Origin: Huintestinicola sp. | GTDB taxonomy: Bacteria > Bacillota > Clostridia > Oscillospirales > Ruminococcaceae | Direction of reading: 5' to 3' | Assembly: GCA_051882495.1 (NCBI GenBank) | Contig: JBJERX010000108.1 | Coordinates: 16,291-80,290 of the forward strand | Length of the DNA stretch: 64,000 nucleotides | Notes under the pieces: generated by a model | What the model saw: the letters and a program-made list of their open reading frames with translations, nothing else | What the model was told of the DNA's origin: nothing | Database searches by the model: none | Part shown: positions 37,017 through 61,086 of the stretch, one piece after another | Layout of the letters: the number at the start of each line of letters is the position of its first letter | Position numbering within the stretch: the first letter of the stretch is position 1 | Position numbers and translations under genes: made by a program

Positions 37017-37100
37017 TTTATTCATATTACAGTATCATAGATTCAGACAAAGTATATTGCAGCTATGCTGTTACAATATTATCAAATGGAGGTAAAACAA

Positions 37101-38201: not shown

Positions 38202-38621
38202 TTATTACAGCTTGTTTACAGAAATTATTCGTTATCTTTGGTGCGTCGGGACACGATTTTTACATATTTTTTACACATCCTTGAAAATGTGTAATAATTA
38301 TTGTGCATGATGCACTAAAGATTAACGTTTATCGCTGATTTTGTTGAATTTAATGTATTTATGTAATTTTTCGGGTTTTAAGTTGCAATATGTGAATAAA
38401 AAATATAATGTGTAATAATTAAATATTTACATGTCATGTTATGATAATGAAAAAACACTTTACAAAATATTTGAAATCGGAAAAATTGCAAAAATTAGTG
38501 ATTGACAGATTGCGGCAACTAAAGTTTTTGGTGAAAACGACGGAAAGAGTTGGCAAAAAAATGCCGTATATGAAAAGATAACCAAATTCACAAAATTAGA
38601 GAAAAAAATATCTAAAAAGTA

Positions 38622-38650
38622 TTGACTTTTAGATTTGAATGTACTATAAT
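38622..38650 (+). promoter_or_regulatory. Strong sigma-A promoter of the pilin pair
   Basis: TTGACT-17 bp-TATAAT. Confidence 0.7.
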
Positions 38651-38737
38651 GATATCAAGGTCAGAGGATAAAACAAATATCCTTAAAGCCAAGATACATT
38701 GGTACTAAACTTCTATACTATTACAGGAGGGAGTCCA

Positions 38738-39421: not shown

Positions 39422-39495
39422 TTATGTATAACTGAAAGCAAAAGGCTTTCTGCTTATAAAAAACAAAAAACATATTTAAGAAGGAGGAATTTCCA

Positions 39496-40014
39496 ATGAG
39501 AAATTCAAAGATGAAGGGCTTCACACTTATCGAGCTCATCGTTGTTATCGCAATCATCGGCGTACTCGCAGCTATCCTCGTACCTTCCATGATCGGCTAC
39601 GTTAAGGATTCCAAGTACTCCACAGCTAACTCCAATGCTAAGCTTTGCTACACATCCGCTGCTAACTGGTTCACAAAGTGCGATGCTAACGGCAAGTCCT
39701 GCACAATCGCTGAGAACACTTGGGTAGACGTTGATAACGCTACTCTCGGTTCAACAGTAAGCATTGATGATGTTGACTTCGATGGTACAAACCAGGCTGA
39801 CCTTCAGGATTGCCTCACAGCTCTCATGGGTGGTGCCGGAACAAAGTCCGGTTCTACATCTGTAAACATCGGCAAGTCCAATGGTCCTAAGTACACAAAC
39901 TGGACATCTGCTTCTACAGGTAGTACTGCTGTTATCATCGGTACATATCCCGTTGAGAACTCTGCTGCTAAGGATGCTTCCGCATCTATCGGCTGGCACG
40001 GCACAAGAACCTAA
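39496..40014 (+). CDS. pilA: Type IV pilin, probable major pilin
   Basis: MRNSKMKG|FTLIELIVVIAII; AGGAGG RBS; codon choice of a highly expressed gene (ttc, atc, gct, aac); strong terminator follows. Confidence 0.85.
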   Translation: MRNSKMKGFTLIELIVVIAIIGVLAAILVPSMIGYVKDSKYSTANSNAKLCYTSAANWFTKCDANGKSCTIAENTWVDVDNATLGSTVSIDDVDFDGTNQADLQDCLTALMGGAGTKSGSTSVNIGKSNGPKYTNWTSASTGSTAVIIGTYPVENSAAKDASASIGWHGTRT

Positions 40015-42942: not shown

Positions 42943-43458
42943 TTATCGTGATCTGCCCCATACCAGAGGAGAAGACTTATCCTTTGAAGCGGAATTCTCC
43001 ACAGGATAGTTTCCGATTATGGTGTGGTCCTGTGTAGCTGACCACTGGGCGAAGGTTACTCCGTTTTTGGGGTCCATATCAATATAAACTGTACCGGAAC
43101 GAACACCGGCACCGTTGCCCATATATACTATCAGGTTAGTTGTCAGGTCATTAACTGTTCCGTCAAAGGCGATGTCCTCATACACGTTGCCCTGATATCC
43201 CAGTGAACCTGCAATGTTTCCCAGGGGGATAGTTACAGCTAAACGCTGCGAGGGATTATTTCCTGTGTTGTCACACTGTGTGAACCAATTCATAGATGTA
43301 GAATATGCAAGCTTTGCGTTTGTATTGGCTGTGGAGTATTTGGAATCCTTGACATATCCTATCATTGTGGGAACAAGGATAGCTGCCAGAACACCGACTA
43401 TGGCAATTACAACGATCAGTTCAATAAGAGTAAAACCTTTGAAGCGGGTATTTTTCAT
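42943..43458 (-). CDS. Type IV pilin, paralog of the 39496 pilin
   Basis: MKNTRFKG|FTLIE; first 44 mature residues are 40/44 identical to the 39496 pilin; shared C-terminal IIGxYPVENSAxKD motif. Confidence 0.9.
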   Translation of the reverse strand: MKNTRFKGFTLIELIVVIAIVGVLAAILVPTMIGYVKDSKYSTANTNAKLAYSTSMNWFTQCDNTGNNPSQRLAVTIPLGNIAGSLGYQGNVYEDIAFDGTVNDLTTNLIVYMGNGAGVRSGTVYIDMDPKNGVTFAQWSATQDHTIIGNYPVENSASKDKSSPLVWGRSR

Positions 43459-46330: not shown

Positions 46331-47203
46331 TTGAAAGGCATTATTCTTGCAGGCGGTAAAGGGACACGGCTTTACCCCAATACTATAGTTGTTTCAAAGC
46401 AGCTTCTTCCGATCTATGATAAGCCGCTTATCTATTATCCGTTATCGGTTCTTCTTCTGGCTGATATCAAGGAAATACTTCTTATCTCCACTCCCGAGGA
46501 TACTCCGAATTACAGGAAGCTCCTTGGAGATGGTTCACGGATTGGTATATCTATAGAATACAGGATACAGGAAAAACCACGTGGTCTTGCCGATGCGTTT
46601 ATTATCGGTGCGGATTTTATAGGCAATGACAGTGTATGCCTTGTTCTGGGGGATAATGTTTTCTACGGACAGTGCTTCTCTTCAATGCTCATGGACGCAC
46701 AACAGCAGATATGTAACGGAGGAGCAGCCATTTTTGGATATCCCGTTGCAAATCCCAGAGAGTTTGGTGTTGTGGAATTTGACAAAAACAACAAGGTTAT
46801 TTCCATTGAGGAAAAGCCTGCTGTTCCAAAGTCCAATTATGCTGTCCCGGGATTGTATTTCTATGATAATCACGTTGTTGAGATCGCCAAAAGCATCAAG
46901 CCATCTGCCAGAGGCGAGATAGAGATCACTTCCGTCAATAACTATTATCTTGAACACAATATGATGAACGTTACGCTCATGGGGCGAGGTATGGCATGGC
47001 TGGACACAGGCTCGCCAAAGGGCATGCTCAAGGCTGCGGAATTTGTCCGGACCGTTCAGGATATGCAGGGCTTTTATATTGCCTGCATAGAGGAGATCGC
47101 ATGGCGAAGAAGATTTATTACAACAGAGCAGCTTCACGCTATTGGCGAGGAGCTTAAAATGACCGAGTACGGAAAATATTTATTATCGCTTTCGGAGGAG
47201 TAA
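46331..47203 (+). CDS. rmlA: Glucose-1-phosphate thymidylyltransferase
   Basis: GIILAGGKGTRLYP, SKQLLPIYDKP, QEKPRGLA, SARGEIEITS, WLDTG. Confidence 0.95.
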   Translation: MKGIILAGGKGTRLYPNTIVVSKQLLPIYDKPLIYYPLSVLLLADIKEILLISTPEDTPNYRKLLGDGSRIGISIEYRIQEKPRGLADAFIIGADFIGNDSVCLVLGDNVFYGQCFSSMLMDAQQQICNGGAAIFGYPVANPREFGVVEFDKNNKVISIEEKPAVPKSNYAVPGLYFYDNHVVEIAKSIKPSARGEIEITSVNNYYLEHNMMNVTLMGRGMAWLDTGSPKGMLKAAEFVRTVQDMQGFYIACIEEIAWRRRFITTEQLHAIGEELKMTEYGKYLLSLSEE

Positions 47204-47205
47204 TT

Positions 47206-48225
47206 ATGACTATTATAGTAACAGGCGGAGCAGGCTTTATCGGAGGAAATTTCGTTCACTATATGCTGAAGAAATACCCCGATCACAGGGTGATCTGCGT
47301 TGACTGCCTGACCTATGCGGGAAATCCTGAGACTCTTGCTCCTGTTATGAATAACCCGAGCTTCCGCTTCTGCAAGGTGGATATCACCGACAGAGAGGCT
47401 GTGAACAAGGTGTTTGAAGAGGAAAAGCCTGATATCGTTGTCAATTTTGCTGCGGAAAGCCACGTTGACCGTTCCATTGAGGATCCCGGAGTTTTCCTGA
47501 CTACCAACATCATCGGTACTCAGGTAATGATGGATGCCTGCCGCAAATACGGTATAAAGAGATATCATCAGGTTTCCACCGACGAGGTATACGGCGATCT
47601 TCCTCTTGACCGCCCCGACCTTTTCTTCACCGAGGAAACTCCCATACATACCTCAAGCCCTTACAGTGCATCAAAGGCAAGTGCCGATCTGCTTGTCCTT
47701 GCGTATCACAGGACATACGAACTGCCTGTGACAATTTCACGCTGCTCCAATAACTATGGTCCATATCATTTTCCCGAGAAGCTTATCCCCCTTATGATAG
47801 CAAATGCACTGCATGACAAGCCGCTGCCTGTTTACGGCAAGGGTGAGAATGTGCGTGACTGGCTGTATGTTGAGGACCACTGTAAAGCTATCGACCTAAT
47901 TATCCACAAGGGCAGAGAAGGGGAGGTCTACAATATCGGCGGTCATAACGAGATGAAAAATATTGATATTGTTAAGATGATCGTCAAGGCTCTCGGGAAA
48001 AGCGAGGATCTTATTACCTTTGTGGCTGACAGAAAAGGTCACGATAGGCGTTACGCCATTGACCCCACAAAGATACATACCGAGCTGGGATGGCTCCCCG
48101 AAACAAAATTTGAGGATGGTATTCAGAAAACTATCAGCTGGTATCTTGACAACAGAGAATGGTGGGAGCATATCATTAATGGCGAATATAAGGAATACTA
48201 TAAAAAAATGTATAGCTGCAGGTAA
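47206..48225 (+). CDS. rmlB: dTDP-glucose 4,6-dehydratase
   Basis: VTGGAGFIG, AAESHVDRSI, STDEVYG, YSASKA, NNYGPYHFPEKLIP, GHDRRY. Confidence 0.95.
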   Translation: MTIIVTGGAGFIGGNFVHYMLKKYPDHRVICVDCLTYAGNPETLAPVMNNPSFRFCKVDITDREAVNKVFEEEKPDIVVNFAAESHVDRSIEDPGVFLTTNIIGTQVMMDACRKYGIKRYHQVSTDEVYGDLPLDRPDLFFTEETPIHTSSPYSASKASADLLVLAYHRTYELPVTISRCSNNYGPYHFPEKLIPLMIANALHDKPLPVYGKGENVRDWLYVEDHCKAIDLIIHKGREGEVYNIGGHNEMKNIDIVKMIVKALGKSEDLITFVADRKGHDRRYAIDPTKIHTELGWLPETKFEDGIQKTISWYLDNREWWEHIINGEYKEYYKKMYSCR

Positions 48226-48334
48226 GGCCGCACCCTGTCTGCAGCACGTTATTAAGTATCAATTAAGATAAAACGCAAAGCAGAAGGAGACGACACTGAT
48301 TTCCTCCTCTCTGCAGCTTTTTTTTGAATATGGG

Positions 48335-48363
48335 TTGACTTTTTTTGCGGATTAGTATATAAT
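48335..48363 (+). promoter_or_regulatory. Sigma-A promoter of the CDP-sugar operon
   Basis: TTGACT-17 bp-TATAAT, ~200 nt upstream of rfbF. Confidence 0.7.
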
Positions 48364-48564
48364 AAAATCGAGTATTATTGTTTAACGCTAAGTTCAAATC
48401 GTTTAATAGACAGATCCGGCAGAAGAGAAGCTGATTGTTTGCCTTATCCGTTTTATCCTTGGCGGCTTATGTTGAGTTCCGGAATTATGGTAATTCCGTT
48501 CCGATAATTATGATGATGGTGGTTTGCAAAGACCCAAAAAAATAACAGTAGGGAGATAAAAATT

Positions 48565-49344
48565 ATGAAAGCAGTTCTTTTAGCAGGAGGACTGGGAACA
48601 AGAATTTCCGAGGAATCCCAGTACAAGCCCAAGCCTATGATCGAAATAGGCGGAATGCCTATTCTGTGGCATATAATGAAGGAATATTCCTATTACGGAT
48701 TTAACGATTTTATCATCTGTGCAGGCTATAAGCAGCACGTTATAAAGGAATGGTTCGCAGATTATTTCCTGCATACCTCCGATATAACCTTCGATTTTAC
48801 CGAAGGCAACAAAATGGTTATACATAACATGAAGGCAGAGCCCTGGAGGGTCACAGTGGTGGATACGGGGCTTAATACAATGACAGGCGGCAGAATAAAG
48901 CGTATCCGGCCCTATATCGGCAATGAGACATTTATGATGACATATGGCGACGGCGTATGCGATGTGAATATTACCGAGCTGCTTGAGTTCCATAAGAGCC
49001 ATGGAAAGACTGCAACACTGACCGCTGTAATGCTTGAGCAGCAGAAGGGCGTACTGGATATCGGCGGCGACAATGCTGTCCACTCCTTCAGAGAAAAGGC
49101 TGCGGGAGACGGTGCACCTATTAATGCGGGATATATGGTGCTTGAGCCTGAGATCTTCGATTATATTGACGGTGATGATACCGTATTTGAGAAAAAGCCT
49201 CTGGAAACACTGGCGGCAAAGGGAGAGCTTATGAGCTATATGCACAAGGGCTTCTGGCAGTGCATGGATACAAAGCGTGAAATGGATATGCTTGAAAAGC
49301 TCCTTGCCACAGGACAGGCACCCTGGAAAAAATGGGAGGACTAA
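48565..49344 (+). CDS. rfbF: Glucose-1-phosphate cytidylyltransferase (DdhA)
   Basis: LAGGLGTRISEE..KPKPMIEIG, DTGLNTMTGGRIKR, TYGDG, GFWQCMDT. Confidence 0.95.
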   Translation: MKAVLLAGGLGTRISEESQYKPKPMIEIGGMPILWHIMKEYSYYGFNDFIICAGYKQHVIKEWFADYFLHTSDITFDFTEGNKMVIHNMKAEPWRVTVVDTGLNTMTGGRIKRIRPYIGNETFMMTYGDGVCDVNITELLEFHKSHGKTATLTAVMLEQQKGVLDIGGDNAVHSFREKAAGDGAPINAGYMVLEPEIFDYIDGDDTVFEKKPLETLAAKGELMSYMHKGFWQCMDTKREMDMLEKLLATGQAPWKKWED

Positions 49345-49349
49345 GCTCA

Positions 49350-50420
49350 ATGGACCTTAAAAGCTTTTACAAAGGGAAAAAAGTCCTCATAACGGGGCAT
49401 ACAGGCTTCAAAGGCTCATGGCTTTGCAGGATACTTGCAGGCTTCGGAGCGGAGGTGACAGGCTATTCTCTTACGCCCCCAACATCCCCCTCGCTGTTTG
49501 AGCTTGCGGAGGTTGAAAAGGACATCACTCACATTGTGGGGGATATCAGAGACCTCGACAGCCTTAAAAAAGTATTTGAGGAAAAGCGTCCCGAGATAGT
49601 TCTTCATCTTGCGGCTCAGCCTATTGTAAGGGAGAGCTATAGGAATCCCCTTGATACCTATGAGATAAATGTTATGGGCACAGCCAATATCCTGGAGTGC
49701 GTCCGTCTTACCGACTGCGTCAAGTCCTTTCTGAATGTTACTACCGATAAGGTTTATCTCAATCGTGAGTGGGAATGGGGCTACCGTGAGACAGACGAGC
49801 TGGATGGCTATGACCCTTATTCCAACTCCAAATCCTGTTCCGAGCTGGTGACACATTCATATAAAAACAGCTTTTTCTCCGACGGCAGAACAGCCATTTC
49901 CACCGCCCGTGCGGGAAATGTTATCGGCGGCGGAGATTTTGCTTCTGACAGAATAATCCCGGACTGCATCAGAGCAGCAGAAAAGCATGAGGATATAATC
50001 GTCAGAAATCCTTTTTCAACACGTCCCTATCAGCACGTTCTGGAGCCGCTTTTTGCATATCTGCTCATTGCTGCAAAGCAGTATGAGGATATCTCCTATG
50101 AGGGATATTACAATGTTGGTCCCGATGATAACTGCTGCTTTGAGACAGGCAGGATAGTTGATCTCTTTACTGAAAAATGGGGAGATGGTATCAAGTGGGT
50201 CAATAAGTATGACGGCGGACCTCACGAAGCTAATTTCCTGAAGCTTGACTGTGCTAAGATAAAGACTAAATTCGGCTGGAGACCTACCTGGGAGCTTCCC
50301 GAGACTATGGATAAAATAGTTGAGTGGACAAAGCTTTATATCAGCGGGGCATCTGCCATTGAGCTGAAAGAATGTATGGACAGGCAGATAAATGAATTTA
50401 TGGAACAGATGAATAAATAA
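49350..50420 (+). CDS. rfbG: CDP-glucose 4,6-dehydratase (DdhB)
   Basis: ITGHTGFKGSWL, HLAAQP, TTDKVY, DPYSNSK, RAGNVIGGGD, RPYQHVLEPL, HEANFLKLD. Confidence 0.95.
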   Translation: MDLKSFYKGKKVLITGHTGFKGSWLCRILAGFGAEVTGYSLTPPTSPSLFELAEVEKDITHIVGDIRDLDSLKKVFEEKRPEIVLHLAAQPIVRESYRNPLDTYEINVMGTANILECVRLTDCVKSFLNVTTDKVYLNREWEWGYRETDELDGYDPYSNSKSCSELVTHSYKNSFFSDGRTAISTARAGNVIGGGDFASDRIIPDCIRAAEKHEDIIVRNPFSTRPYQHVLEPLFAYLLIAAKQYEDISYEGYYNVGPDDNCCFETGRIVDLFTEKWGDGIKWVNKYDGGPHEANFLKLDCAKIKTKFGWRPTWELPETMDKIVEWTKLYISGASAIELKECMDRQINEFMEQMNK

Positions 50421-50441
50421 TTTTGAAAGGAATCGTATAAA

Positions 50442-51788
50442 ATGAGCAAGTGGAATACCGAAGCAGAGGCAAGAGATCAGATAAAGGCTCTTGTTGCTGA
50501 TTATTACCATAACTTTAAGGAAAATAAGGCTCCCTTTGAAAAGGGCAACAGAATAAGCTATGCATCAAGAGTATTTGATGAAAAGGAAATGTGTGCACTT
50601 ACCGATGCTATGCTTGATTTTTGGCTTACCACAGGCAGATTTGCCGATGAATTTGAGAAGGAGTTTGCAAAGTGGATAGGCGTAAAGCATGCACATCTTG
50701 TAAACAGCGGTTCTTCCGCAAATCTTATTGCATTTATGGCACTTACCGCACCTGAGCTTGGCGACAGACAGATAAAGAGAGGGGACGAGGTCATTACTGT
50801 AGCCTGCGGCTTCCCCACAACTGTCACACCTATTCTTCAGTACGGGGCAGTGCCTGTTTTCGTTGATGTGACCGTTCCTCAGTATAACATTGATGTGAAC
50901 GCACTTGAAGCGGCTCTCAGCGATAAGACCAAGGCTGTTATGATAGCACATACGCTGGGAAATCCCTTTGACCTTAAGGCTGTAAAGGCATTCTGTGATA
51001 AGCATGGTCTCTGGCTTGTAGAGGATAACTGCGACGCTTTGGGCACACAGTACACCATTGACGGTGAGACACGCTTCACAGGCACATGGGGAGATATAGG
51101 CACATCAAGCTTCTATCCTCCTCACCACATGACTATGGGCGAGGGCGGCTGTGTTTATACCAATGACCCCAAGCTTTCAAGACTTATCCTTTCTTATCGT
51201 GACTGGGGAAGAGACTGCATCTGTCCTTCGGGCAGGGACAATTTCTGTAACCATCGTTTTGACGGACAGTTCGGTGAGCTTCCTCAGGGCTACGACCACA
51301 AGTATGTTTACAGCCATTTCGGATATAATCTTAAGGTTACGGATATGCAGGCAGCTGTAGGCTGCGAGCAGCTGAAAAAGTTCCCTTCATTTATTGAGAG
51401 ACGCCGTCACAACCATGACAGGCTCCTTAAGGCTCTTGAATGCGTAAGCGACAAGCTTATCCTTCCCGTTCCCGCCGAGAACAGCCGTCCTTCCTGGTTT
51501 GGCTTCCTCATTTCCGTTAAGCCCGAAAGCGGCAGGACAAGAAACGAGGTCACAAAATATATTGAATCCCACAATATTCAGACAAGACTGCTTTTCAGCG
51601 GCAACCTTATCAAGCACCCCTGCTTCGACCAGATCAGAGGCACAGACGCTTACAGGATTGCAGGCAGCCTTGAAAATACCGATTTTATTATGAATAACAC
51701 CTTCTGGGTGGGGGTTTATCCCGGTATGACAGATGAGATGATAGATTATATGGCTGAAGTTATTATTGAGGCTGTGAAGTATGAATGA
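50442..51788 (+). CDS. rfbH: CDP-4-keto-6-deoxyglucose 3-dehydrase E1 (DdhC)
   Basis: SFYPPHHMTMGEGG has His in place of the aminotransferase Lys; GRDCICPSGRDNFC..YDH fits the E1 Fe-S ligand pattern. Confidence 0.92.
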   Translation: MSKWNTEAEARDQIKALVADYYHNFKENKAPFEKGNRISYASRVFDEKEMCALTDAMLDFWLTTGRFADEFEKEFAKWIGVKHAHLVNSGSSANLIAFMALTAPELGDRQIKRGDEVITVACGFPTTVTPILQYGAVPVFVDVTVPQYNIDVNALEAALSDKTKAVMIAHTLGNPFDLKAVKAFCDKHGLWLVEDNCDALGTQYTIDGETRFTGTWGDIGTSSFYPPHHMTMGEGGCVYTNDPKLSRLILSYRDWGRDCICPSGRDNFCNHRFDGQFGELPQGYDHKYVYSHFGYNLKVTDMQAAVGCEQLKKFPSFIERRRHNHDRLLKALECVSDKLILPVPAENSRPSWFGFLISVKPESGRTRNEVTKYIESHNIQTRLLFSGNLIKHPCFDQIRGTDAYRIAGSLENTDFIMNNTFWVGVYPGMTDEMIDYMAEVIIEAVKYE

Positions 51789-52767
51789 TACAAAGAAAAC
51801 CGTAAGCGTGGTAATTCCTACCTATAATGAAATAGAAAATGTTCAGGCAGTTGCAGATGCGGTAGTGAAAGAGTTAACGGATAATCTGCCCGAGTATAAC
51901 TATGAGCTGCTGTTTATCGATAACAAGTCCACTGATGGTACAAGAGATGTTATCAGAAAGCTCTGTTCCGAAAATCCGTGTATCAAGGCTATTTTTAATA
52001 TAAAGAATTTTGGACCCGACAATTCTCCGTATTATGGTCTGCTTCAGGCAACGGGTGACTGTGTGATCCCATTTAGCGCTGATTTTCAGGATCCTATTGA
52101 AATGATACACAAAATGGTTCGAGAATGGGAAAAAGGAAATAAGGTAATAACAGCAATAAAGCAAACAAGCCGTGAAAACAAGCTGCTGCGTTTCTTAAGA
52201 ACAATTTATTATAAGTTGATCCGCAAAATATCAAGCACCGAGATAATAGAACATTTTACAGGTTTCGGACTTTATGATCGTTCATTTGTGGATATACTTC
52301 GTTCGATAAATGATCCAGTCCCGTTCTTCAGAGGGGTTGTGGCAGAGTTCAGCGACAGTCGGTTGGAAATGCCCTATGAGCAGCAGAAAAGAAGAGCGGG
52401 GAAGAGTCATATAAGATTTTTCACTCTATACGATATGGTAATGAGGAGCATAACCTCGTATACAAGGATAGGTTTGCGCATAGCTACGCTTATTGGATTC
52501 GGAACTGCAGCAATTTCGCTGCTGGTTGCTGTTATTTACTTTATATATAAGCTTTTAAATTGGGATAGCTTCAATACGGGTATGGCTCCTGTTGTTATTG
52601 GCATATTCTTCTTCAGTTCAATACAGCTTGCATTTCTCGGACTGATGGGAGAATATGTTATGAGTATAAATAACAGGATAATTAACAGACCATTGGTAAT
52701 AGAAGCTGAAAGAATAAATTTTGTCAGCTCCGAAATAACAACCTTATCGGATAAAGACAGCTTATGA
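51781..52767 (+). CDS. GT2 polyprenyl-phosphate glycosyltransferase (GtrB-like)
   Basis: VVIPTYNE, FIDNKSTDGT, SADFQDP, RRAGKS, two C-terminal TMs. Confidence 0.85.
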   Translation: MNDTKKTVSVVIPTYNEIENVQAVADAVVKELTDNLPEYNYELLFIDNKSTDGTRDVIRKLCSENPCIKAIFNIKNFGPDNSPYYGLLQATGDCVIPFSADFQDPIEMIHKMVREWEKGNKVITAIKQTSRENKLLRFLRTIYYKLIRKISSTEIIEHFTGFGLYDRSFVDILRSINDPVPFFRGVVAEFSDSRLEMPYEQQKRRAGKSHIRFFTLYDMVMRSITSYTRIGLRIATLIGFGTAAISLLVAVIYFIYKLLNWDSFNTGMAPVVIGIFFFSSIQLAFLGLMGEYVMSINNRIINRPLVIEAERINFVSSEITTLSDKDSL

Positions 52768-52800
52768 TAATATATGATATGTCACGGAGGCATAAAATTG

Positions 52801-53859
52801 ATGAATGCACAAATAAAGCTGCTTGACTGTACTCTCAGAGATGGCGGATTTGCTCTTGAAGATGCGGAAAAAAATAATATTTCTGCAGGCACATTTTCAG
52901 AGGATGATAGGAATCATATAGCACAGAAGATGACAGAAAGCGGTGCGGAAATAATCGAGCTTGGAGCTATTGAGGTCACTCCTTCCGACAGAAAAGGCTT
53001 TGCCATTTACCCGGATATCGAAAGCATCTCTGCTGTGATGCCTCCGAAAAAGAACAGCAGCCAGCTTTATGCAGGCTTTTTCAGGGGGCCCGACAGACCT
53101 CTTGAGGAAATCCCGCCCTATTCCGAGAATATGCTGGAAGCTGTAAGAGTTTGTCTCAGATATTCCGAGCTGAGGAAATCCCTTGATTACTGTAAGGGAC
53201 TATGCGAAAAAGGATATAAAGTATTTATTCAACCAATGGTCACTGCACGCTATACGGATGAGGAGCTTTCTCTTCTTACCCAAGAGGCAAACTCTATGGG
53301 AGCATATGCTCTGTACTTTGTGGACAGCTACGGCTTTATGACCGAGGAGGATGTGGCGTATTATTTCGGACGATTTGACCGTGAACTTGCCCCCTCAATC
53401 AAAATAGGCTTTCACGCCCACAATAATATGGAAATGGCACTGCCCAATGTATTGTCCTTTATAAAAAATTGCGGAAGCAGAGAAATAATTATTGATTCCT
53501 GTGCCGACGGTATGGGACAAGGCACGGGCAATCTCCAGACCGAGATAATTATGAATTATCTCAACAGGATGTATGGCAAGAACTACTGCCTAGATAAGGT
53601 CTTCGATGTATGTGAGACTATAGGGAAATTTAATTCAAACAGGCTTTGGGGTTACCTGCCTGCAAGATTTATTCCTGCTGTGAATGGCACCGCCTACAAA
53701 TATGCCTTGGCATTAAAAAATAAGTATGGAATGAGCCTCGCAGAAATACACAGCATTCTCAGCAATATCTCTGAAGAGCTGAGATACAGATATACTCCCG
53801 AAAATGCAGAAAAGCTTGTTATTGACAGTGGGATCTATGTAAATAAGGATGGTAAATAA
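52801..53859 (+). CDS. DRE-TIM (HMGL-like) aldolase, 4-hydroxy-2-oxovalerate aldolase-like
   Basis: LLDCTLRDGG, YFVDSYG, GFHAHNN metal site, GMGQGTGN. Confidence 0.8.
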   Translation: MNAQIKLLDCTLRDGGFALEDAEKNNISAGTFSEDDRNHIAQKMTESGAEIIELGAIEVTPSDRKGFAIYPDIESISAVMPPKKNSSQLYAGFFRGPDRPLEEIPPYSENMLEAVRVCLRYSELRKSLDYCKGLCEKGYKVFIQPMVTARYTDEELSLLTQEANSMGAYALYFVDSYGFMTEEDVAYYFGRFDRELAPSIKIGFHAHNNMEMALPNVLSFIKNCGSREIIIDSCADGMGQGTGNLQTEIIMNYLNRMYGKNYCLDKVFDVCETIGKFNSNRLWGYLPARFIPAVNGTAYKYALALKNKYGMSLAEIHSILSNISEELRYRYTPENAEKLVIDSGIYVNKDGK

Positions 53860-53861
53860 GT

Positions 53862-55529
53862 ATGACTGTTGCCGAATATATCGTTAGCGAGATGATAAAA
53901 TGCGGTGTAACAGATGCCTTTGGTATACCGGGTGGAGTTATATTAAAGCTGCTTGCTGCAATGAAAAAAGCAGAACCGGTTCTAACTCCTCATCTGACAT
54001 ATCACGAGCAGACAGCAGGCTTTGCGGCTCTCGGTTATGCTCAGTCAAGCGGAAGGTTAGGTGTTGCTTATTCAACAAGAGGACCTGGTATTACCAATAT
54101 GATTACCTGTATTGCTGAAGCATATCAGGAATCGCTGCCCGTGCTGTTTATCACAGCTCATGGCAGGCGGATGGAGAATAATGTAAGATTTAACGATAAT
54201 CAGGAGCTTGAAGTAGTCAGCTGCATTTCAAAATTCACCAAATTTGCAGCTAATGCCGATACTCCCCACGATGCAGCTAAAATGCTCAAAAAAGCAATTA
54301 ACATTGCGGTGAGTGGAAGAAAGGGACCTGTTTTTCTTGATTTTGCGGCATCCGTTTTCGATAATGAGATTTCTGACGTACCCGAAGAGCATACGGTTTT
54401 GGAGGATAATAGCTCTGTTTCAAAAGCTGCAGATAATGCGACGAAGTTGCTTTCCTCTGCAAAGCGTCCGATATTGCTTATTGGTGACGGACTTAGATAT
54501 TATTCAAAGGACAAACTTAAGAAAATTGCAGAAACACTTAAGATCCCCGTGCTTTCAAGCAGAGGTTCTCAGGATCTTTTGGGAGGCTCGGAGTATTATT
54601 TCGGGTATGTGGGCAGCCACGGTGTAAGATACAGCAACTTTATCCTTTCAAAGGCAGACCTTATCATTGCTGTGGGAAACAGAATGGCATTCCCTCTAAA
54701 CTCGGCAAGCTTTTCTCCTGTTATCAATAATGCAATCATATTCAGAGTGGATATTGATGAAAATGAGCTGAGCCGTCATATTCCTAATGAATATGCTTTT
54801 GCTTGTGACGGCGGAATGTTTCTTGAACTGCTTATGGGGAAGTATCATTTTGAACAAGGCACCGAAGGCTGGCTTGACGTTTGTCGATGCCTTAAAAGAG
54901 AGCTTATTGATGAGGACTGCAATGAAACAGTAAGAAGACTGTCATCATTCATGTCTGCACAGTCTGCCGGAAAGCATTATGTCTGTGATGTTGGAAATAA
55001 TGAATTCCTGTTTTCAAGGGCATATGAGTACATTGGCTCAGAAGATAGTATATGCTGCTCAAAATCCTTCGGTACCTTAGGTTCTTCTATAGGACGTGCT
55101 ATTGGTGTATATTATGCATCCGGCGGAGAAGTTATCTGTGTATGCGGAGATCAGGGCTTTCAGTATAATTCACAGGATCTGCATTATATTTCTCAATGGA
55201 AGCTTCCAATCAGGATAGTTTTACTGAACAATTCCCGCTCGGGAATGATAGCAGATCACGAAAAGAATGTGCTGGGTGATATGAGAATTCATATTGATGA
55301 AGGATCGGGCTACAAAACTCCTGATTTTGCCAAGGTTGCTCAATGCTACGGTATAGAGTATACATCAGATCAGGATACTGCCTGTATGGATAATAATGAA
55401 CCTTTGCTTTATGAGATAAAGTCTGACGAGTGCGGTATCCTTTCACCTTCTTTACCAAAAGGAAATCCCTGTCAGGATATGTTCCCTCTTCTTGACAGAA
55501 ATAAATATGAGTATCTTGATAAACTTTGA
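53862..55529 (+). CDS. Acetolactate-synthase-like ThDP enzyme (YerE-like carboligase)
   Basis: FGIPGG, HEQTAGFAA, RGPGITN, GRKGPVFLD, ThDP motif CGDQG..LLNN; glycan-locus context. Confidence 0.8.
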   Translation: MTVAEYIVSEMIKCGVTDAFGIPGGVILKLLAAMKKAEPVLTPHLTYHEQTAGFAALGYAQSSGRLGVAYSTRGPGITNMITCIAEAYQESLPVLFITAHGRRMENNVRFNDNQELEVVSCISKFTKFAANADTPHDAAKMLKKAINIAVSGRKGPVFLDFAASVFDNEISDVPEEHTVLEDNSSVSKAADNATKLLSSAKRPILLIGDGLRYYSKDKLKKIAETLKIPVLSSRGSQDLLGGSEYYFGYVGSHGVRYSNFILSKADLIIAVGNRMAFPLNSASFSPVINNAIIFRVDIDENELSRHIPNEYAFACDGGMFLELLMGKYHFEQGTEGWLDVCRCLKRELIDEDCNETVRRLSSFMSAQSAGKHYVCDVGNNEFLFSRAYEYIGSEDSICCSKSFGTLGSSIGRAIGVYYASGGEVICVCGDQGFQYNSQDLHYISQWKLPIRIVLLNNSRSGMIADHEKNVLGDMRIHIDEGSGYKTPDFAKVAQCYGIEYTSDQDTACMDNNEPLLYEIKSDECGILSPSLPKGNPCQDMFPLLDRNKYEYLDKL

Positions 55530-55543
55530 TCGGAGGAACGTTT

Positions 55544-57301
55544 ATGTATATCGAAAATATCAGCAGTCCAGCAGATTTGAAAAAGCTATCAATGGATGAA
55601 TGTGAAGCTCTTGCTTCCGAAATTCGTTCAATGCTTATAAAAAAAGCTTCTATTAATGGCGGACATCTTGCTTCTAATCTGGGTATGGTCGAAGCAGCTA
55701 TAGCTCTGCACTATGTATTTGACTCACCTTCCGATAAGATCATATTTGACGTTTCTCACCAGTGCTATACCCATAAGATACTTACCGGCAGAAAAGCTGC
55801 ATTTACTGATGTGGATAAATACTCCTCGGTAAACGGCTATACAAATCCTGATGAAAGTGAGCACGATCTGTTTAAGGTAGGTCATACTGCAACATCCATA
55901 AGCCTTGCCTGTGGTCTTGCAAAGGCAAGAAACATCAGAGGCGGTAAAGAAAGCATTATTGCAGTTATCGGAGATGGTTCGCTAAGCGGAGGAGAAGCTT
56001 TTGAAGGGCTTGATTTCGGCGGTTCTGATATTGAGGGTAATTTTATTGTGCTTTTCAATGACAATCAGATGTCTATTGCGGAAAATCACGGCGGCATCTA
56101 CAATAATCTTGCTCTGCTCAGAAATACTGAGGGAAAAGCTGAAAATAATCTTTTTAAGGCCTTTGGATATGACTATATTTTTGTTAAGGATGGCAACAGT
56201 ATAGTGCAGATTGTGAATGCACTCAGAGAGGCAAAAGAGCTTGACCACCCTGTCGTTGTTCATATATGCACGGTAAAAGGAAAAGGCTATGACTTTGCCG
56301 AAAGCCACAAGGAAAGCACTCATTGGGTAAAACCCTTTAATATTGACAGCGGACTTGAAAAAAATCCTTTTAACGGAGAACGCTACGACAGGCTCATGCG
56401 AGATCACCTAATCGAAAAAATGGAAGAGGATCCCAATGTAGTTACAATGATAGCTGCTGTCCCCGATTCGCTCAATTTTACTGCCGAACACAGAAAAAAG
56501 GCAGGGAAGCAGTTTGTTGATGTAGGTATTGCAGAGGAGCATGCTGTTTCTATGGCGGCTGGTCTTGCAAAGAATGGCTGCAAGCCCGTTTTTGCCACAA
56601 TGTCTACATTCTTCCAGAGGACATATGACCAGATATCTCAGGAACTATGTATCAACAATACGCCTGTCACTCTTCTTGTAATAAATGCTTCTGTTTATTC
56701 AGTAAATGATATTACTCATATTGGAATATTCGATATTCCAATGATGTCAAATATACCGAATCTTGTGTATCTTGCTCCCACAAATAAACAGGAATATCTT
56801 GCCATGACGGACTGGAGTATAGATCAGCAGCAATATCCGGTAGCAATAAGAGCACCCAGAAACGGTGTGTATAATGCAAAGGACGATGTTGACACCGATT
56901 ACAGCTGTCTTAACAAATATAAGGTCGTTACAAAAGGTGAAAAGGTTGCTGTCCTTGCATTAGGAAGCTTTTTCCAGTTGGGCGAGGAGATTTTGAAAAA
57001 AATTTCAGACAGCCTTGGTTTTGTACCTACACTGATAAATCCGAGATATATCACGGGTATTGATAACGAGCTTCTTGAAAGACTGAAAAAGGATCATGAT
57101 GTCGTTATTACTCTGGAGGACGGCGTTCTTGACGGCGGATGGGGTCAGAAGATAGCATCATTCTATGGTAATTCTGAAATGAAGGTACTGAATTATGGAC
57201 TGAAAAAAGAATTCCTCGACAGATATGACTTGAACAAGGTCATGACCGAGAATCGCCTCATACCTGAGCTTATCCTTGAAGATATCAGGGGAATTCTTTG
57301 A
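55544..57301 (+). CDS. DXS-like ThDP carboligase 1 (short type, 585 aa)
   Basis: GGHLASNLG, FDVSHQ, GDGSLSGG..NDN, IAEEHA, TFFQRTYDQ; GGAGG RBS before ATG 55544. Confidence 0.85.
   Translation: MYIENISSPADLKKLSMDECEALASEIRSMLIKKASINGGHLASNLGMVEAAIALHYVFDSPSDKIIFDVSHQCYTHKILTGRKAAFTDVDKYSSVNGYTNPDESEHDLFKVGHTATSISLACGLAKARNIRGGKESIIAVIGDGSLSGGEAFEGLDFGGSDIEGNFIVLFNDNQMSIAENHGGIYNNLALLRNTEGKAENNLFKAFGYDYIFVKDGNSIVQIVNALREAKELDHPVVVHICTVKGKGYDFAESHKESTHWVKPFNIDSGLEKNPFNGERYDRLMRDHLIEKMEEDPNVVTMIAAVPDSLNFTAEHRKKAGKQFVDVGIAEEHAVSMAAGLAKNGCKPVFATMSTFFQRTYDQISQELCINNTPVTLLVINASVYSVNDITHIGIFDIPMMSNIPNLVYLAPTNKQEYLAMTDWSIDQQQYPVAIRAPRNGVYNAKDDVDTDYSCLNKYKVVTKGEKVAVLALGSFFQLGEEILKKISDSLGFVPTLINPRYITGIDNELLERLKKDHDVVITLEDGVLDGGWGQKIASFYGNSEMKVLNYGLKKEFLDRYDLNKVMTENRLIPELILEDIRGIL
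57068..57295 (+). repeat. 228-bp direct repeat, copy 1 (3' end of DXS-like 1)
   Basis: 227 of 228 bases identical to 60137-60364 (offset 3,069 bp), compared by eye. Confidence 0.95.
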
Positions 57302-57337
57302 TTATAATCCTATTGATAAAGGAGTAACTGCATAGAA

Positions 57338-58333
57338 ATGAAAGATATAACTATATTAGTTACAGGTGCCACGGGTTTATTGGGCTATAATCTTGTTAAT
57401 CAATTGATTGACAGGGACGTAAAAGTAATTGCATTGGGAAGAAGCGAAGAAAAGCTTCGTAACTGCTTTAACGAACATATCGGAAAAGATTATTTTTCAT
57501 ATATAGCGTCTGATATTTCCGGGCTAAAGTTACCTATAGATGAACCAATCGATTGTATTTTTCACGCAGCAGGATCGATTGAATTGAAAACAATAGTCGA
57601 GCAACCAATGAATATTGTAAATCCTAACAGTTTAGGCACTATTTCCTGCTTGGAATTCTTAAAAGAACAAGAAATAAGGAGCGGTAAAAGAGGAAGACTC
57701 ATTTACTTCTCCAGTGAAGCAGTATATGGTAAAAGCAGCAATGATAGACGGGTCACAGAGGAGGATACGGAAATATCCGATTCGCTTACAGTCCAAAGAT
57801 CACCCTACTCACATTCCAAAAGGATCGGAGAAGTAATTGTAAACGGCTATCACAAGCAATATAACACCGATTCATTGAGTGTGAGACTTTCCTGGGTATA
57901 TGGAAATGCAAAAATCAGACCCAAGCAAGCACTGTTTGATTTTATTCAAACCGCTCTTGAGGGAAATGATATAATAATCAGAAACGCCAACACTCCCAGA
58001 CGAGATAATATCTGCATGAAGGATGCTATGGAAGCATTGATCTGTATAGCTCAGAAGGGAACGGCAGGGGAGGCTTATAACATTTCTTCAGGCGGAGACT
58101 GCGGCAATTTCGCGTCGGCTGCCGAGATCGCAGAGATCGTTGCTGATATTGTAAACAGCAAACAGTATTCACCCAAGCCTGTACATGTGCTTTACGAAAA
58201 TGAATTATCCAAAAGAGAAGGCGGGATTATTATGGACAATTCCAAGCTTAAAATGCTGGGATGGGACATAACAACTGGACTTCGTGATGGAATTGAAAAG
58301 TTAATAGATGAGGTAAGAAACAATGTATATTGA
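57338..58333 (+). CDS. Extended SDR (NAD(P)-dependent NDP-sugar reductase/epimerase)
   Basis: VTGATGLLG, SSEAVYG, YSHSK catalytic YxxxK, RLSWVYG. Confidence 0.85.
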   Translation: MKDITILVTGATGLLGYNLVNQLIDRDVKVIALGRSEEKLRNCFNEHIGKDYFSYIASDISGLKLPIDEPIDCIFHAAGSIELKTIVEQPMNIVNPNSLGTISCLEFLKEQEIRSGKRGRLIYFSSEAVYGKSSNDRRVTEEDTEISDSLTVQRSPYSHSKRIGEVIVNGYHKQYNTDSLSVRLSWVYGNAKIRPKQALFDFIQTALEGNDIIIRNANTPRRDNICMKDAMEALICIAQKGTAGEAYNISSGGDCGNFASAAEIAEIVADIVNSKQYSPKPVHVLYENELSKREGGIIMDNSKLKMLGWDITTGLRDGIEKLIDEVRNNVY

Positions 58334-60110
58334 AAAGATCAACAGTCCCGCGGACTTAAAAAAATTATCAATTGATGAGTGTAAGGTATTAGCAGATGAG
58401 ATGAGGCAGACACTGCTAAATAAACTAAGCGTTACAGGCGGACATCTGGCACCGAATCTTGGTGTCGTTGAGGCAGTGATAGCATATCATTATGTTTTCG
58501 ATTCTCCCTATGATAAAATCGTTTTCGATGTATCCCATCAATGCTATCCTCATAAGATGCTCACAGGAAGAATGGAAGCTTATACAAAGCCTGAGAAATA
58601 TTCATCTGTAACAGGATTTACTGAAATTACTGAAAGCGAACACGACTTTTTTACTGTAGGTCATACTTCAACCTCAATCAGTCTCGCCAGCGGTATGGCT
58701 AAGGCACGAGATCTGAAGGGTGACAAAGAGAATATAATTGCATTTATCGGAGACGGCTCATTAGGCGGTGGTGAAGCATTTGAGGGACTTGATTATGTGG
58801 CCTCTGAAATAAATAGCAATTTTATTATCATATTAAATGATAATGGAATTTCCATAGCTGAAAATGTAGGTGGGCTGTATAAGAACTTAAAAGAACTCCG
58901 CGATACAAACGGTACTTCTCAAAACAATATATTTAAGGCTCTGGGACTTGATTATAGGTTTGTAGAAAATGGAAATGATATTCCTTCTTTAGTAGAAACA
59001 TTGCAGGAAGTTAAGGATATTGATCATCCGGTAGTAGTGCATATTTGTACAGTTAAGGGTTATGGATATACATATTCGGAAAGTAACCCTGAGATGACTC
59101 ATTGTCTTAATAAACCTTTCGATATTGAAAAGGGTCCTGATTTTACTCCATTTAAGTTTGTTGAAGGAAAGAATGAAAGATATGATTATATAATCAGAGA
59201 ACACCTTATTGACCGAATGAAAAAAGATCCTCTTATTACCACAATTATGGCATCAACAATGTACTGCCTTTCTTTTACGAAAGATAAGCGGGAAGAAGCC
59301 GGAAATCAGTTTGTTGATGTAGGGGCGGTAGAGGAACATGGTATTGCGATGACTGCCGGCGTAGCACGAAATGGAGGCAAACCTGTATTCGTAACTGCAT
59401 CTACTTTCTATATGCGAACATATGACCAGATATCTCAGGAATTATGTATAAATAAATGCCCTGCTACATTAATTGTAGTCAATGCTTCCGTGTATGCAGT
59501 TGATGATGTTACACATACTGAAATATTTGATATCCCTATGATGTCAAATATACCGAATCTGGTATATCTTGCTCCCACAAACAAGCAGGAATATTTAGCA
59601 ATGTTGGATTGGAGTATAGATCAGACAGAGTATCCTGTTGCAATTCGTCAGCCTAGAAATGGTGTTTTCTATGCTAAGGGTGAAGTGGATAAGGATTATA
59701 GCGATCTAAATAAGTATAAGATTGAAATATGCGGCAGCAAGGTTGCAATTATTGCCCTGGGAGAATTCTATCAGTTGGGAGAATCAGTTGTCGATTTATT
59801 AGAGAAAAGAACAGGAATAAAAGCTACACTAATAAATCCCAGATATATAACCGGAATTGACGAAGCACTGCTGAGAAGTCTTCCTGAAACGCATAGTTTG
59901 ATAGTAACACTTGAAAGCGGCTCACTGAACGGAGGATTTGGAGAAAAAATTGCATCTTTCTATGGACCTGATAACAGAGTAAAAGTTCTTAACAGAGGTT
60001 TGAAAAAGGAATTCCTTGATACGGTTCATATGAGTACTGCGAAATTACTGGAAGATTTGCGCCTGACAGACGAGTTACTATGTGATGATATTGAAAGCTG
60101 TCTGAATTGA
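58323..60110 (+). CDS. DXS-like ThDP carboligase 2 (595 aa)
   Basis: GGHLAPNLG, DVSHQ, GDGSLGGG..NDN, AVEEHG, TFYMRTYDQ; clear paralog of DXS-like 1. Confidence 0.85.
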   Translation: MYIEKINSPADLKKLSIDECKVLADEMRQTLLNKLSVTGGHLAPNLGVVEAVIAYHYVFDSPYDKIVFDVSHQCYPHKMLTGRMEAYTKPEKYSSVTGFTEITESEHDFFTVGHTSTSISLASGMAKARDLKGDKENIIAFIGDGSLGGGEAFEGLDYVASEINSNFIIILNDNGISIAENVGGLYKNLKELRDTNGTSQNNIFKALGLDYRFVENGNDIPSLVETLQEVKDIDHPVVVHICTVKGYGYTYSESNPEMTHCLNKPFDIEKGPDFTPFKFVEGKNERYDYIIREHLIDRMKKDPLITTIMASTMYCLSFTKDKREEAGNQFVDVGAVEEHGIAMTAGVARNGGKPVFVTASTFYMRTYDQISQELCINKCPATLIVVNASVYAVDDVTHTEIFDIPMMSNIPNLVYLAPTNKQEYLAMLDWSIDQTEYPVAIRQPRNGVFYAKGEVDKDYSDLNKYKIEICGSKVAIIALGEFYQLGESVVDLLEKRTGIKATLINPRYITGIDEALLRSLPETHSLIVTLESGSLNGGFGEKIASFYGPDNRVKVLNRGLKKEFLDTVHMSTAKLLEDLRLTDELLCDDIESCLN

Positions 60111-60388
60111 GTCAAATCTTTTCAGAGTATGTTAATGAGCTTCTTGAAAGACTGAAAAAGGATCATGATATCGTTATTACTCTGGAGGACGGCGTTCTTG
60201 ACGGCGGATGGGGTCAGAAGATAGCATCATTCTATGGTAATTCTGAAATGAAGGTACTGAATTATGGACTGAAAAAAGAATTCCTCGACAGATATGACTT
60301 GAACAAGGTCATGACCGAGAATCGCCTCATACCTGAGCTTATCCTTGAAGATATCAGGGGAATTTTTAACAATTGGCACACTGTATGA
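60107..60388 (+). pseudogene. Duplicated C-terminal fragment of DXS-like 1
   Basis: Encodes ELLERLKKDHD..EDIRGI from the 228-bp repeat; no catalytic domains. Confidence 0.85.
60137..60364 (+). repeat. 228-bp direct repeat, copy 2
   Basis: One mismatch versus 57068-57295 (g57101 / a60170). Confidence 0.95.
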
Positions 60389-60397
60389 TGCGGCAAT

Positions 60398-60571
60398 GCT
60401 CCCGTACTTATAGGAGTATTCCTTCTCGGCGGAATTCAGCTTTTCTTTATCGGACTGCTGGGCGAATACATAATGTCAATAAACACCAGAGTCATGAACA
60501 GACCTTTGGTTATTGAAGAAAAAAGACTGAATTTTGATGATCCTCATGATGAAAAAGAGGACAGAGAATAA
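60398..60571 (+). pseudogene. 3' remnant of a second GtrB-like GT2 gene, absent from the ORF track
   Basis: APVLIGVFLLGGIQLFFIGLLGEYIMSINTRVMNRPLVIEEKRLNF..* parallels APVVIGIFFFSSIQLAFLGLMGEYVMSINNRIINRPLVIEAERINF of 51781-52767; in-frame stop at 60386-60388, no start. Confidence 0.85.
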
Positions 60572-60609
60572 TTTCGGTCATAATATTTCCGTATGAGGGA
60601 GCTGAACCA

Positions 60610-61086
60610 ATGCAATCAATAAAGCAGTTTTTAAAATTCGGCATAGTCGGATTATCCAATACTCTTATTTCGCAGATCATATACATGATAGCAGTCTCCC
60701 TTGGTGCTCACTATCTTGCAGCCAGCGTGATCGCTTTCATTATCAGTGTGCTGAATGCATTTTTCTGGCAGAATAAATTTGTTTTCAAGGAGGAAGAGGA
60801 CAAGGAGAAAAGAGTATGGTGGAAGGTTCTTCTGAAAACCTATGCAGCTTACGCCTTTACGGGTCTGCTGCTGAATAATCTTCTCCTGATAATGTGGATA
60901 GACCTTATCAGGATCGAAAGCTTCACTCCTGCACTCACTGATCTTGTGAACAGCTTCGGTATCAATATAAGCAATCATGATCTGGCTGTTGATATAGCTC
61001 CTCTTCTTAATATTGTTGTGAATGTGCCCATTAACTTTGTGATTAATAAATTCTGGGCTTACAGGCAAAAAAAGGTTGCATCTTAA
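60610..61086 (+). CDS. GtrA-family lipid-linked sugar translocase
   Basis: QFLKFGIVGLSNTLI, NAFFWQNKFVF, INFVINKFWAY; four TMs. Confidence 0.9.
   Translation: MQSIKQFLKFGIVGLSNTLISQIIYMIAVSLGAHYLAASVIAFIISVLNAFFWQNKFVFKEEEDKEKRVWWKVLLKTYAAYAFTGLLLNNLLLIMWIDLIRIESFTPALTDLVNSFGINISNHDLAVDIAPLLNIVVNVPINFVINKFWAYRQKKVAS

Follow-up and report, generated by a model that had tools for sequence, protein, structure and literature searches.

Two DXS-like paralogues in a glycan operon

We analysed a 64,000-nucleotide stretch of DNA from Huintestinicola sp. [quoted passage not shown] Both lie within a single co-directional glycan operon (46331-61086). An original prediction, made from the letters of this DNA, had described two short DXS-fold proteins (585 and 595 amino acids) with retained thiamine diphosphate (ThDP) and histidine motifs and a changed acceptor site, and had proposed that they are not DXS enzymes of the methylerythritol phosphate (MEP) pathway but carboligases supplying methyl-terminated polyol precursors.

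Both open reading frames are present as described. Gene A runs from an ATG at 55544 to a stop at 57301, with a GGAGG ribosome-binding site 6 nucleotides 5' of the ATG; an alternative start, a TTG at 55526, finds no support in the N-termini of homologues. Gene B is an intact open reading frame (58323-60110) with a ribosome-binding site, and we rejected the possibility of a decaying copy, as the frame is intact, all catalytic residues are present and the protein belongs to a conserved clade of its own. A and B are 62% identical, and a Pfam scan found DXP_synthase_N, Transket_pyr and Transketolase_C domains in both. Every motif string quoted in the original prediction was recovered from the translations, which contain LLVINASVYSVNDITH and LIVVNASVYAVDDVTH, VGIAEEHA and VGAVEEHG, and STFFQR and STFYMR.

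Against TIGR00204, the canonical DXS equivalogue (EC 2.2.1.7), A scored 460.5 bits and B 428.8 bits, both under the curated whole-protein cut-off of 465.95 bits, A by about 5 bits. Both were far over the 510-bit cut-off of NF008968 (PRK12315), with 855.8 bits for A and 808.7 bits for B, and both also passed NF003933, a DXS equivalogue. A matched PDB entry 9KPQ with 777 bits in phmmer; this entry, released 2025-08-20, is titled 'A ThDP-dependent enzyme belonging to the DXPS-like subfamily'. An AlphaFold2 model of A (pLDDT 83.9) superposed on 9KPQ with a TM score of 0.92 at 58% identity, and on true DXPS structures with TM scores of 0.79-0.87 at about 30% identity.

The acceptor site is altered in both clades

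We aligned 23 canonical DXS, 122 A-type, 17 B-type and 37 other PRK12315-type sequences, numbered on Escherichia coli DXS; for the R99 column we used a local alignment without gaps (LTGR + 20 residues + ESE). H49, H80, G151-D152-G153, N181, H299, E370, R398, D401 and H431 were invariant in all aligned groups, and the residues of ThDP and Mg binding and of cofactor activation (GDG...N, E370) were 100% conserved in A and B, in keeping with the retained motifs of the original prediction. The conservation of catalytic and cofactor residues argues that both are active ThDP enzymes that would still form a two-carbon (C2) ThDP adduct from a 2-oxo acid.

In canonical DXS (n = 23), Y392, D419, R420 and G428 were each 100% conserved, and R99 was found in 91%. 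All of these positions were replaced in A and B. The A-type sequences (n = 122) have N420 (99%), S422 (100%), D428 (100%), M or L at 392 (97%) and D or E at 99 (90%), together with V, I or A at 419, N427 (99%), I432 and A476. The B-type sequences (n = 17) have N420, A392 and D428 (100% each) and E or D at 99 (83%), together with I or V at 419, S422, D427, T432-E433 and Q476. The window's own proteins have D (A) and E (B) at position 99, and position 427 is N in A and remains D in B. Judged from the alignment, the altered acceptor site is a fixed property of two clades and not noise. The suggestion that A and B differ from each other, possibly in their acceptors, holds at the sequence level, with sister clades and fixed changes at 392, 427, 432-433 and 476, and stays conjectural as regards the acceptors themselves.

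The residues R420, R478 and Y392, which in DXS form the phosphate site for glyceraldehyde 3-phosphate (GAP), are incompletely retained. R420, the arginine of the DRAG motif that, according to the original prediction, contacts the GAP phosphate in E. coli, is replaced by N (99-100%), and Y392 by M or L in A and by A in B. In contrast, R478, the second phosphate-binding arginine, is 100% kept in A-type and B-type sequences, but not in other PRK12315 members, a point that the original prediction had overlooked. R478 is also given as a residue of the GAP phosphate site in PMC11387542. Its retention indicates that the partner may be anionic (phosphate, carboxylate or CDP diphosphate), and the strict conservation of R478, taken with that of N420, S422 and D428, is a hint of a specific partner that may be anionic.

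E. coli DXPS holds lactyl-ThDP (LThDP) until GAP binds, via a network of H431, D427, R99, H49 and H299, and variants of this network yield a two-carbon product (bioRxiv 10.1101/2025.10.24.684457). This network is incomplete in A and B: H431, H49 and H299 are kept, whereas R99 is replaced in both and D427 is N in A. The acidic residue at position 99, with Asn427 in A, suggests that GAP gating has very probably been lost, as have R420 and Y392, which contact the phosphate of GAP.

A and B are separate from the housekeeping DXS

We identified a third DXS homologue in the same genome, on contig C88, which scored 616 bits against TIGR00204 despite being truncated where the contig stops. This canonical dxs carries the motif GIDRAGIVGEDGETHQG and adjoins an ispA-like prenyl-diphosphate synthase gene; dxr is likewise present in the genome. 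A and B are thus not the genome's only dxs homologues. In a tree of 99 sequences (a quick LG+G4 search with SH-aLRT support, in which deep branches are less certain and AniP was not among the sequences), the canonical DXS clade (25 rows, including the genome's own copy) received an SH-aLRT support of 100, with A and B outside it. The A and B sequences formed a clade of 100% support nested within PRK12315-type proteins, in which A (98%) and B (100%) were sister groups.

Within the family, 9 of 151 genomes contained a PRK12315-type gene, and all 8 of the other carriers also have a canonical dxs. Such genes were additionally identified in genomes of Enterococcus pallens, a Limosilactobacillus and Lactobacillus johnsonii, where no dxr was found; similarly, the control genome of Lactococcus lactis passed NF008968 and gave no dxr match. 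Taken with the scores below the TIGR00204 cut-off and the loss of R420, Y392 and R99, the separate dxs and dxr and the position outside the DXS clade strongly support the view, already put forward in the original prediction, that by their sequences A and B are not MEP-pathway DXS enzymes.

Close homologues of A (>70% identity) are common in the Lachnospiraceae, and are named DXS everywhere. More distant PRK12315 relatives (43-60% identical) in named genomes, among them Treponema, Bacteroidaceae, Melainabacteria, Collinsella and lactobacilli, had sugar-cassette neighbours at 0 of 44 loci. We therefore rejected a general equation of PRK12315 with sugar enzymes, and a sugar role would be specific to the A/B clade.

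The PRK12315-type genes outside sugar clusters (L018-L061) occur in gut bacteria of many phyla. A MerR-family regulator adjoins 6 of the 44 and a flavodoxin 3 of the 44 (examples are at L020:9118-9525, L055:11850-12263 and L030:8452-8973), and these genes may have a carbonyl-stress function.

The cassette is conserved around an exchangeable slot

Genomic context is the strongest clue to the role of A and B. Wherever the contig was long enough, the A/B-type gene was accompanied by genes for RfbF, RfbG, usually RfbH, a pyruvate aldolase, a YerE-like ThDP carboligase and a short-chain dehydrogenase/reductase (SDR), with variation in gene order alone. Carriers of this cassette include Roseburia, Lachnospiraceae MD1, Clostridium butyricum, Butyrivibrio sp. 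AC2005, a Coprococcus metagenome-assembled genome and several metagenome contigs. Orthologues of the window's SDR, with 35-43% identity, were found in most cassettes, and its RfbG shares 63% identity with the SDR that comes last in the Roseburia cassette. B-type genes are rarer and, on long enough contigs, share their cassette with an A-type neighbour.

We scanned metagenome contigs with the aldolase and surveyed the slot corresponding to the DXS-like gene. It holds an A-type gene in L122, L124, L127 and L129, a split transketolase of N and C subunits in L125, L128 and L133, and nothing in L131 and L132. On the donor side, the split transketolases have retained H26, H66, H261, H473 and E411, with H100 in two of three, and they are without H461, D469 and S385, which belong to the acceptor site for sugar phosphates. 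We accordingly rejected an ordinary pentose-phosphate role for them; the loss of these acceptor-site residues makes them as atypical as A and B. L129, which has the DXS-like gene, and L131, which does not, have a common aldolase-YerE module with 79% nucleotide identity, and tests for clustering of the aldolase or YerE-like enzymes by accessory type (A, A and B, transketolase or none) found no such clustering. The slot exchanges, the shared L129/L131 module and this lack of clustering indicate that the DXS-like enzyme is an optional, exchangeable module. An aldolase search of 400 sampled genomes of the same class recovered no orthologous cassettes, and just a distant family of 530 amino acids.

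More distant CDP-3,6-dideoxyhexose cassettes were seen at L140:7009-9697 and L145:2824-6911, each with an HMGL-like protein of 535-540 amino acids and a YerE-like enzyme. Between these two genes lies a 3-dehydroquinate-synthase-like gene in L140 and a HAD phosphatase gene in L145, and these cassettes may represent other side-chain chemistries, possibly via phosphorylated or cyclised precursors. In the cassette of Butyrivibrio sp. AC2005, a NUDIX hydrolase gene (L203:10455-11042) overlaps the stop of the DXS-like gene; its product may act on a nucleotide sugar or diphosphate intermediate.

Organisation and history of the window operon

The glycan-operon setting of the original prediction was borne out by the family assignments of the neighbouring genes (Table 1). 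The best NCBIfam match of the aldolase is 4-hydroxy-2-oxovalerate aldolase, under the cut-off, and its PDB matches are 4-hydroxy-2-oxovalerate aldolases. The YerE-like enzyme falls under every acetolactate synthase cut-off, and its best solved relative is PDB 5AHK, which is YerE of Pseudomonas protegens. The DXS-like genes are the sole extra enzymes in the window's cassette. Family scans between 46331 and the contig end found no acylating acetaldehyde dehydrogenase of the ErwJ type.

Table 1. Features of the window operon and of the corresponding slot in sister cassettes.
Feature	Position	Strand	Evidence and remarks
RmlA glucose-1-phosphate thymidylyltransferase	46331..47203	+	First gene of the operon; TIGR01207 446 bits, over cut-off
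RmlB dTDP-glucose 4,6-dehydratase	47206..48225	+	TIGR01181 502 bits, over cut-off
Strong promoter-like site	48335-48363		11/12 matches; 5' of the RfbF gene
RfbF glucose-1-phosphate cytidylyltransferase (CDP-glucose maker)	48565..49344	+	TIGR02623 380 bits, over cut-off
RfbG CDP-glucose 4,6-dehydratase	49332..50420	+	TIGR02622 442 bits, over cut-off
RfbH / E1-type CDP-6-deoxy-4-keto-glucose 3-dehydrase	50442..51788	+	NF011936 717 bits, over cut-off
GT2 polyprenyl-phosphate sugar transferase, PgfS/ArnC-like	51781..52767	+	Pfam Glycos_transf_2; best NCBIfam PgfS and ArnC, both under cut-off
HMGL-like class II pyruvate aldolase (BphI/DmpG/ErwI-like)	52774..53859	+	PF00682
YerE-like ThDP carboligase, acetolactate-synthase fold	53862..55529	+	TPP_enzyme_N, _M and _C domains
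DXS-like paralogue A	55544..57301	+	585 amino acids; PRK12315 / DXPS-like subfamily; INAS..NDITH
SDR, presumed side-chain ketoreductase (YerF/ErwF role)	57338..58333	+	Pfam Epimerase
DXS-like paralogue B	58323..60110	+	595 amino acids; VNAS..DDVTH; rarer, distinct sister clade
Remnant copy of gene A's 3' end (~77 final codons)	60130..60367	+	Direct repeat D2 and alignment
GtrA-family membrane protein, lipid-linked sugar translocation	60610..61086	+	PF04138 73 bits
Split transketolase, sister cassette L125	L125:12780-14545		N + C subunits
Split transketolase, sister cassette L128	L128:12513-14251		N + C subunits
Split transketolase, sister cassette L133	L133:12743-14490		N + C subunits

We identified a direct repeat of 238 nucleotides, 98% identical between its copies, at the 3' end of A (57061-57298) and just after B (60130-60367). 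As these repeats of the end of A flank the SDR-B pair, they are the footprint of a recent recombination, and are a possible substrate for deletion of SDR-B. Other cassettes with both A and B have the gene order SDR-B-A, and the window's aldolase and YerE-like genes are nearest to those of A-only cassettes, which suggests an A-only cassette into which an SDR-B(-A) module was brought by recombination.

Comparison with characterised systems

Like the canonical DXS enzymes of E. coli (2O1S) and Deinococcus radiodurans (2O1X/6OUV), A and B have the three-domain fold, GDG, N181, E370, H49, H80, H299, R398 and H431, and their donor chemistry is probably pyruvate decarboxylation, as in canonical DXS. 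In contrast, they are about 35 amino acids shorter, share about 30% identity with these enzymes, have Y392, D419, R420, G428 and R99 replaced, lie outside the DXS clade, are not beside ispA, and accompany a further dxs homologue in the genome. 9KPQ belongs with A and B to the DXPS-like subfamily and also lacks the DRAG arginine; unlike them, it has FWGT at the DRAG site and has lost R478 (RVPATD), and genes of its type lie outside sugar clusters. We found no relevant paper on the function of 9KPQ, or on DXPS-like or DXS paralogues in bacteria, in the searchable literature.

The closest parallel to the cassette is a published scheme for acyl-branched sugars, shown for erwiniose and argued for caryophyllose and gastriose (Steitz et al., PMC9306805). 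In this scheme, the BphI-like aldolase ErwI joins pyruvate and an aldehyde to a 4-hydroxy-2-oxo acid, the YerE-like proteins ErwE, MMAR_2332 and MyGE perform a decarboxylative ligation onto CDP-4-keto-3,6-dideoxyglucose, and the reductase ErwF completes the branch; ErwJ supplies acetaldehyde in the erwiniose cluster (PMC9306805). The window similarly brings together CDP-4-keto-3,6-dideoxyglucose genes, a BphI-like aldolase, a YerE-like carboligase and a reductase. It differs from the erwiniose cluster in having no ErwJ, with one or two DXS-like enzymes instead in cassettes of its type, and from erwiniose-type clusters in general in its Gram-positive Clostridia host and its GT2/GtrA lipid-carrier export. 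In a search for erwiniose, caryophyllose or yersiniose in Lachnospiraceae, Clostridium or Roseburia, none of the papers listed named any of these sugars.

Two further systems involve related enzymes. AniP (siAniP) of the anisomycin pathway is a ThDP enzyme of the DXPS clade that rejects glyceraldehyde 3-phosphate and takes non-phosphorylated D-glyceraldehyde (PMC11387542). As in A and B, its substrate-recognition residues differ from those of DXS. Unlike them, it uses an aromatic 2-oxo acid donor, has Asp at the equivalent of R478, a replacement absent from A and B, and is encoded in a Streptomyces secondary-metabolite cluster. Enzymes of the transketolase superfamily are additionally known to branch keto sugars, among them E1-like alpha-KADH2 enzymes such as KbDH-alpha/beta, and split-gene transketolases have been proposed for miharamycin and amipurimycin (reviewed in PMC12247030). 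These would share with A and B a C2 transfer of transketolase-superfamily type in deoxy-keto-sugar pathways, and the split transketolases of the sister cassettes, in the slot of the DXS-like gene, parallel those of the antibiotic clusters. They are, in contrast, two-subunit enzymes of actinomycete antibiotic clusters, whereas A and B are single-chain and DXS-type, with a putative action on keto sugars.

Proposed role and alternative explanations

On balance, we favour a role for A and B as accessory ThDP enzymes of the DXPS-like (PRK12315) subfamily that probably carry out C2 transfer in a cassette for a CDP-activated, C-4 acyl-branched 3,6-dideoxyhexose. In the proposed pathway, RfbF, RfbG and RfbH would generate CDP-4-keto-3,6-dideoxyglucose; the BphI-like aldolase would condense pyruvate with an aldehyde to a 4-hydroxy-2-oxo acid; the YerE-like enzyme would decarboxylate this acid and ligate it onto the C-4 ketone; the SDR would reduce the new ketone; and GT2, GtrA and downstream genes would provide for export of the sugar, borne by a lipid carrier, and for its attachment. 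A and B, with bound ThDP and Mg, would activate a 2-oxo acid, most likely pyruvate, and would not bind GAP, so that decarboxylation would no longer be held back until GAP arrives. A C2 unit at the acetyl level (CH3-CO-, or acetaldehyde once protonated) would then pass to a carbonyl partner other than GAP during construction of the side chain. This step would be optional, as minimal cassettes are without it and the split transketolase of sister cassettes would give a hydroxyacetyl unit. B, an old duplicate with fixed pocket changes of its own, would perform a second and different C2 step.

The transfer may consist of ligation to a small aldehyde, or to an anionic carbonyl compound, that enters the 2-oxo-acid donor. 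This is near to the idea of the original prediction, and AniP is a characterised precedent for a DXPS-clade enzyme with a changed acceptor (PMC11387542). The predicted methyl-terminated polyol precursors are plausible and fit the cassette, but supply of a free C2 aldehyde, or direct transfer to a keto sugar, would fit equally well.

Several points weigh against an accessory C2-transfer role of this kind. A ligation of the DXS type yields a methyl ketone instead of an aldehyde, and this product would need a further reaction before it could enter the published aldolase step. R478 is strictly kept, in contrast to the rest of PRK12315. Divergence of the aldolase and of the YerE-like enzyme does not follow accessory type, and the supply of a common aldehyde or a late tailoring step thus fits as well as a new building block. 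Finally, the acceptor of A and B is not readable from their sequences.

An unlikely special case of the proposed role is that A and B supply aldehydes. Here A would be an ungated pyruvate decarboxylase providing acetaldehyde to the aldolase, the job of ErwJ, and B would decarboxylate another 2-oxo acid, such as 2-oxobutyrate or the aldol product, allowing a second aldol round. The cassette has no ErwJ-like gene, unlike the erwiniose cluster (PMC9306805), and the LThDP-holding network is broken (R99 to D or E, and D427N in A) in enzymes whose E. coli counterpart makes a two-carbon product when this network is varied. The DXS-like enzyme is also dispensable in near-identical cassettes, neither the aldolase nor the YerE-like enzyme co-diverges with it, and the split transketolase in the same slot could similarly release glycolaldehyde. 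However, H49, H299, H431 and R478 on the acceptor side, and the set of N420, S422 and D428, are strongly conserved, which would be unexpected in an enzyme without an acceptor, and the MerR-controlled relatives resemble aldehyde consumers rather than producers.

We consider it rather improbable that A and B tailor the sugar directly, with an acetyl unit moved from pyruvate to a ketone on the CDP-sugar itself. That ketone would be the one at C-4 or, after the YerE-like step, the one remaining at C-1'. For C-4 branching the cassette already has its YerE-like enzyme, no second tertiary-alcohol branch is known among the described sugars, and the closest relatives, of the 9KPQ type, are found without any sugar genes. 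These points stand against the precedent of transketolase-superfamily enzymes that branch keto sugars, or are proposed to, in antibiotic pathways (PMC12247030), and against the split transketolases of sister cassettes, which are also without a sugar-phosphate site. The substitutions Y392 to M or A, D419-R420 to V/I-N and Y476 to A or Q would moreover enlarge the pocket, the retained R478 could bind the CDP diphosphate, and the DXS-like enzyme is accessory to an otherwise complete cassette.

It is highly improbable that A and B are true DXS isozymes, as in current NCBI-type annotation, providing extra 1-deoxy-D-xylulose 5-phosphate for isoprenoids, thiamine or pyridoxal phosphate, or as a sugar precursor: although they pass NF003933 and NF008968, A is just 5 bits short of TIGR00204, and they retain R478, H49, H431 and R398, they are without R420, Y392, D419 and R99 (and D427 in A), lie outside the canonical clade in a genome with its own dxs and dxr, belong to a family with members in Enterococcus pallens, Limosilactobacillus and L. 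johnsonii genomes without dxr, and are strictly linked to the branched-sugar cassette.

Beyond the accessory C2-transfer role, we tentatively put forward a more speculative possibility, that the DXS-like clade tied to the cassette constitutes a new class of ThDP enzymes in sugar pathways and, with the pyruvate aldolase, extends the side chain of a C-4-branched deoxyhexose stepwise. If this is true, one paralogue would correspond to one extension, A and B together to a longer or differently terminated chain, and the split transketolase to a hydroxylated counterpart, and gut Clostridia would display a combinatorial family of chemically undescribed higher-carbon branched sugars.

Implications for annotation and for commensal surface sugars

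The DXPS-like subfamily (through the 2025 PDB entry) and the branched-sugar scheme (through its publication) are each already known. We found no description of their union, or of the A/B paralogue pair, in the searchable literature, which excluded most subscription journals. The name DXS is very probably wrong for the cassette-linked clade, and this misnaming skews inference of the MEP pathway and surveys of DXS as a drug target. The published acyl-branched sugar logic has so far been shown in Gram-negative bacteria and mycobacteria. It appears to reach abundant human and rumen commensals, such as Roseburia, Butyrivibrio, Coprococcus and C. butyricum, whose cassettes carry an extra, swappable module for putative C2 transfer. 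We predict surface sugars of unknown structure in these bacteria, which could matter for immune recognition and phage adsorption. DXS-fold enzymes that are freed from GAP gating and take new acceptors would also be attractive carboligation biocatalysts.

Other genes in and around the window

Additional genes were identified on both sides of the operon. Directly 3' of GtrA, at 61283-63775, is a gene for a protein of 830 amino acids with a DUF4214 domain, a long coiled coil and a C-terminal class I methyltransferase domain; its coiled-coil region contains internal sequence repeats (ELAERYETENDRLAELAE; LNEQSDAITRLSEELDRRS...ELDGYTHQI). Further 3' on the same contig (C108) lie a GT1 gene and, beyond the window at L098:3918-7307, genes for an AlgX-like SGNH protein with an Ig domain and then an MBOAT O-acyltransferase, likely a glycan O-acylation pair closing the same operon. 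On the 5' side of the operon we found type IV pilus genes (35232-40014 and 42943-43458), including two T2SSE ATPases and several N-methyl prepilins, which are split by an ion channel gene and an amidohydrolase gene and are unrelated to the operon.

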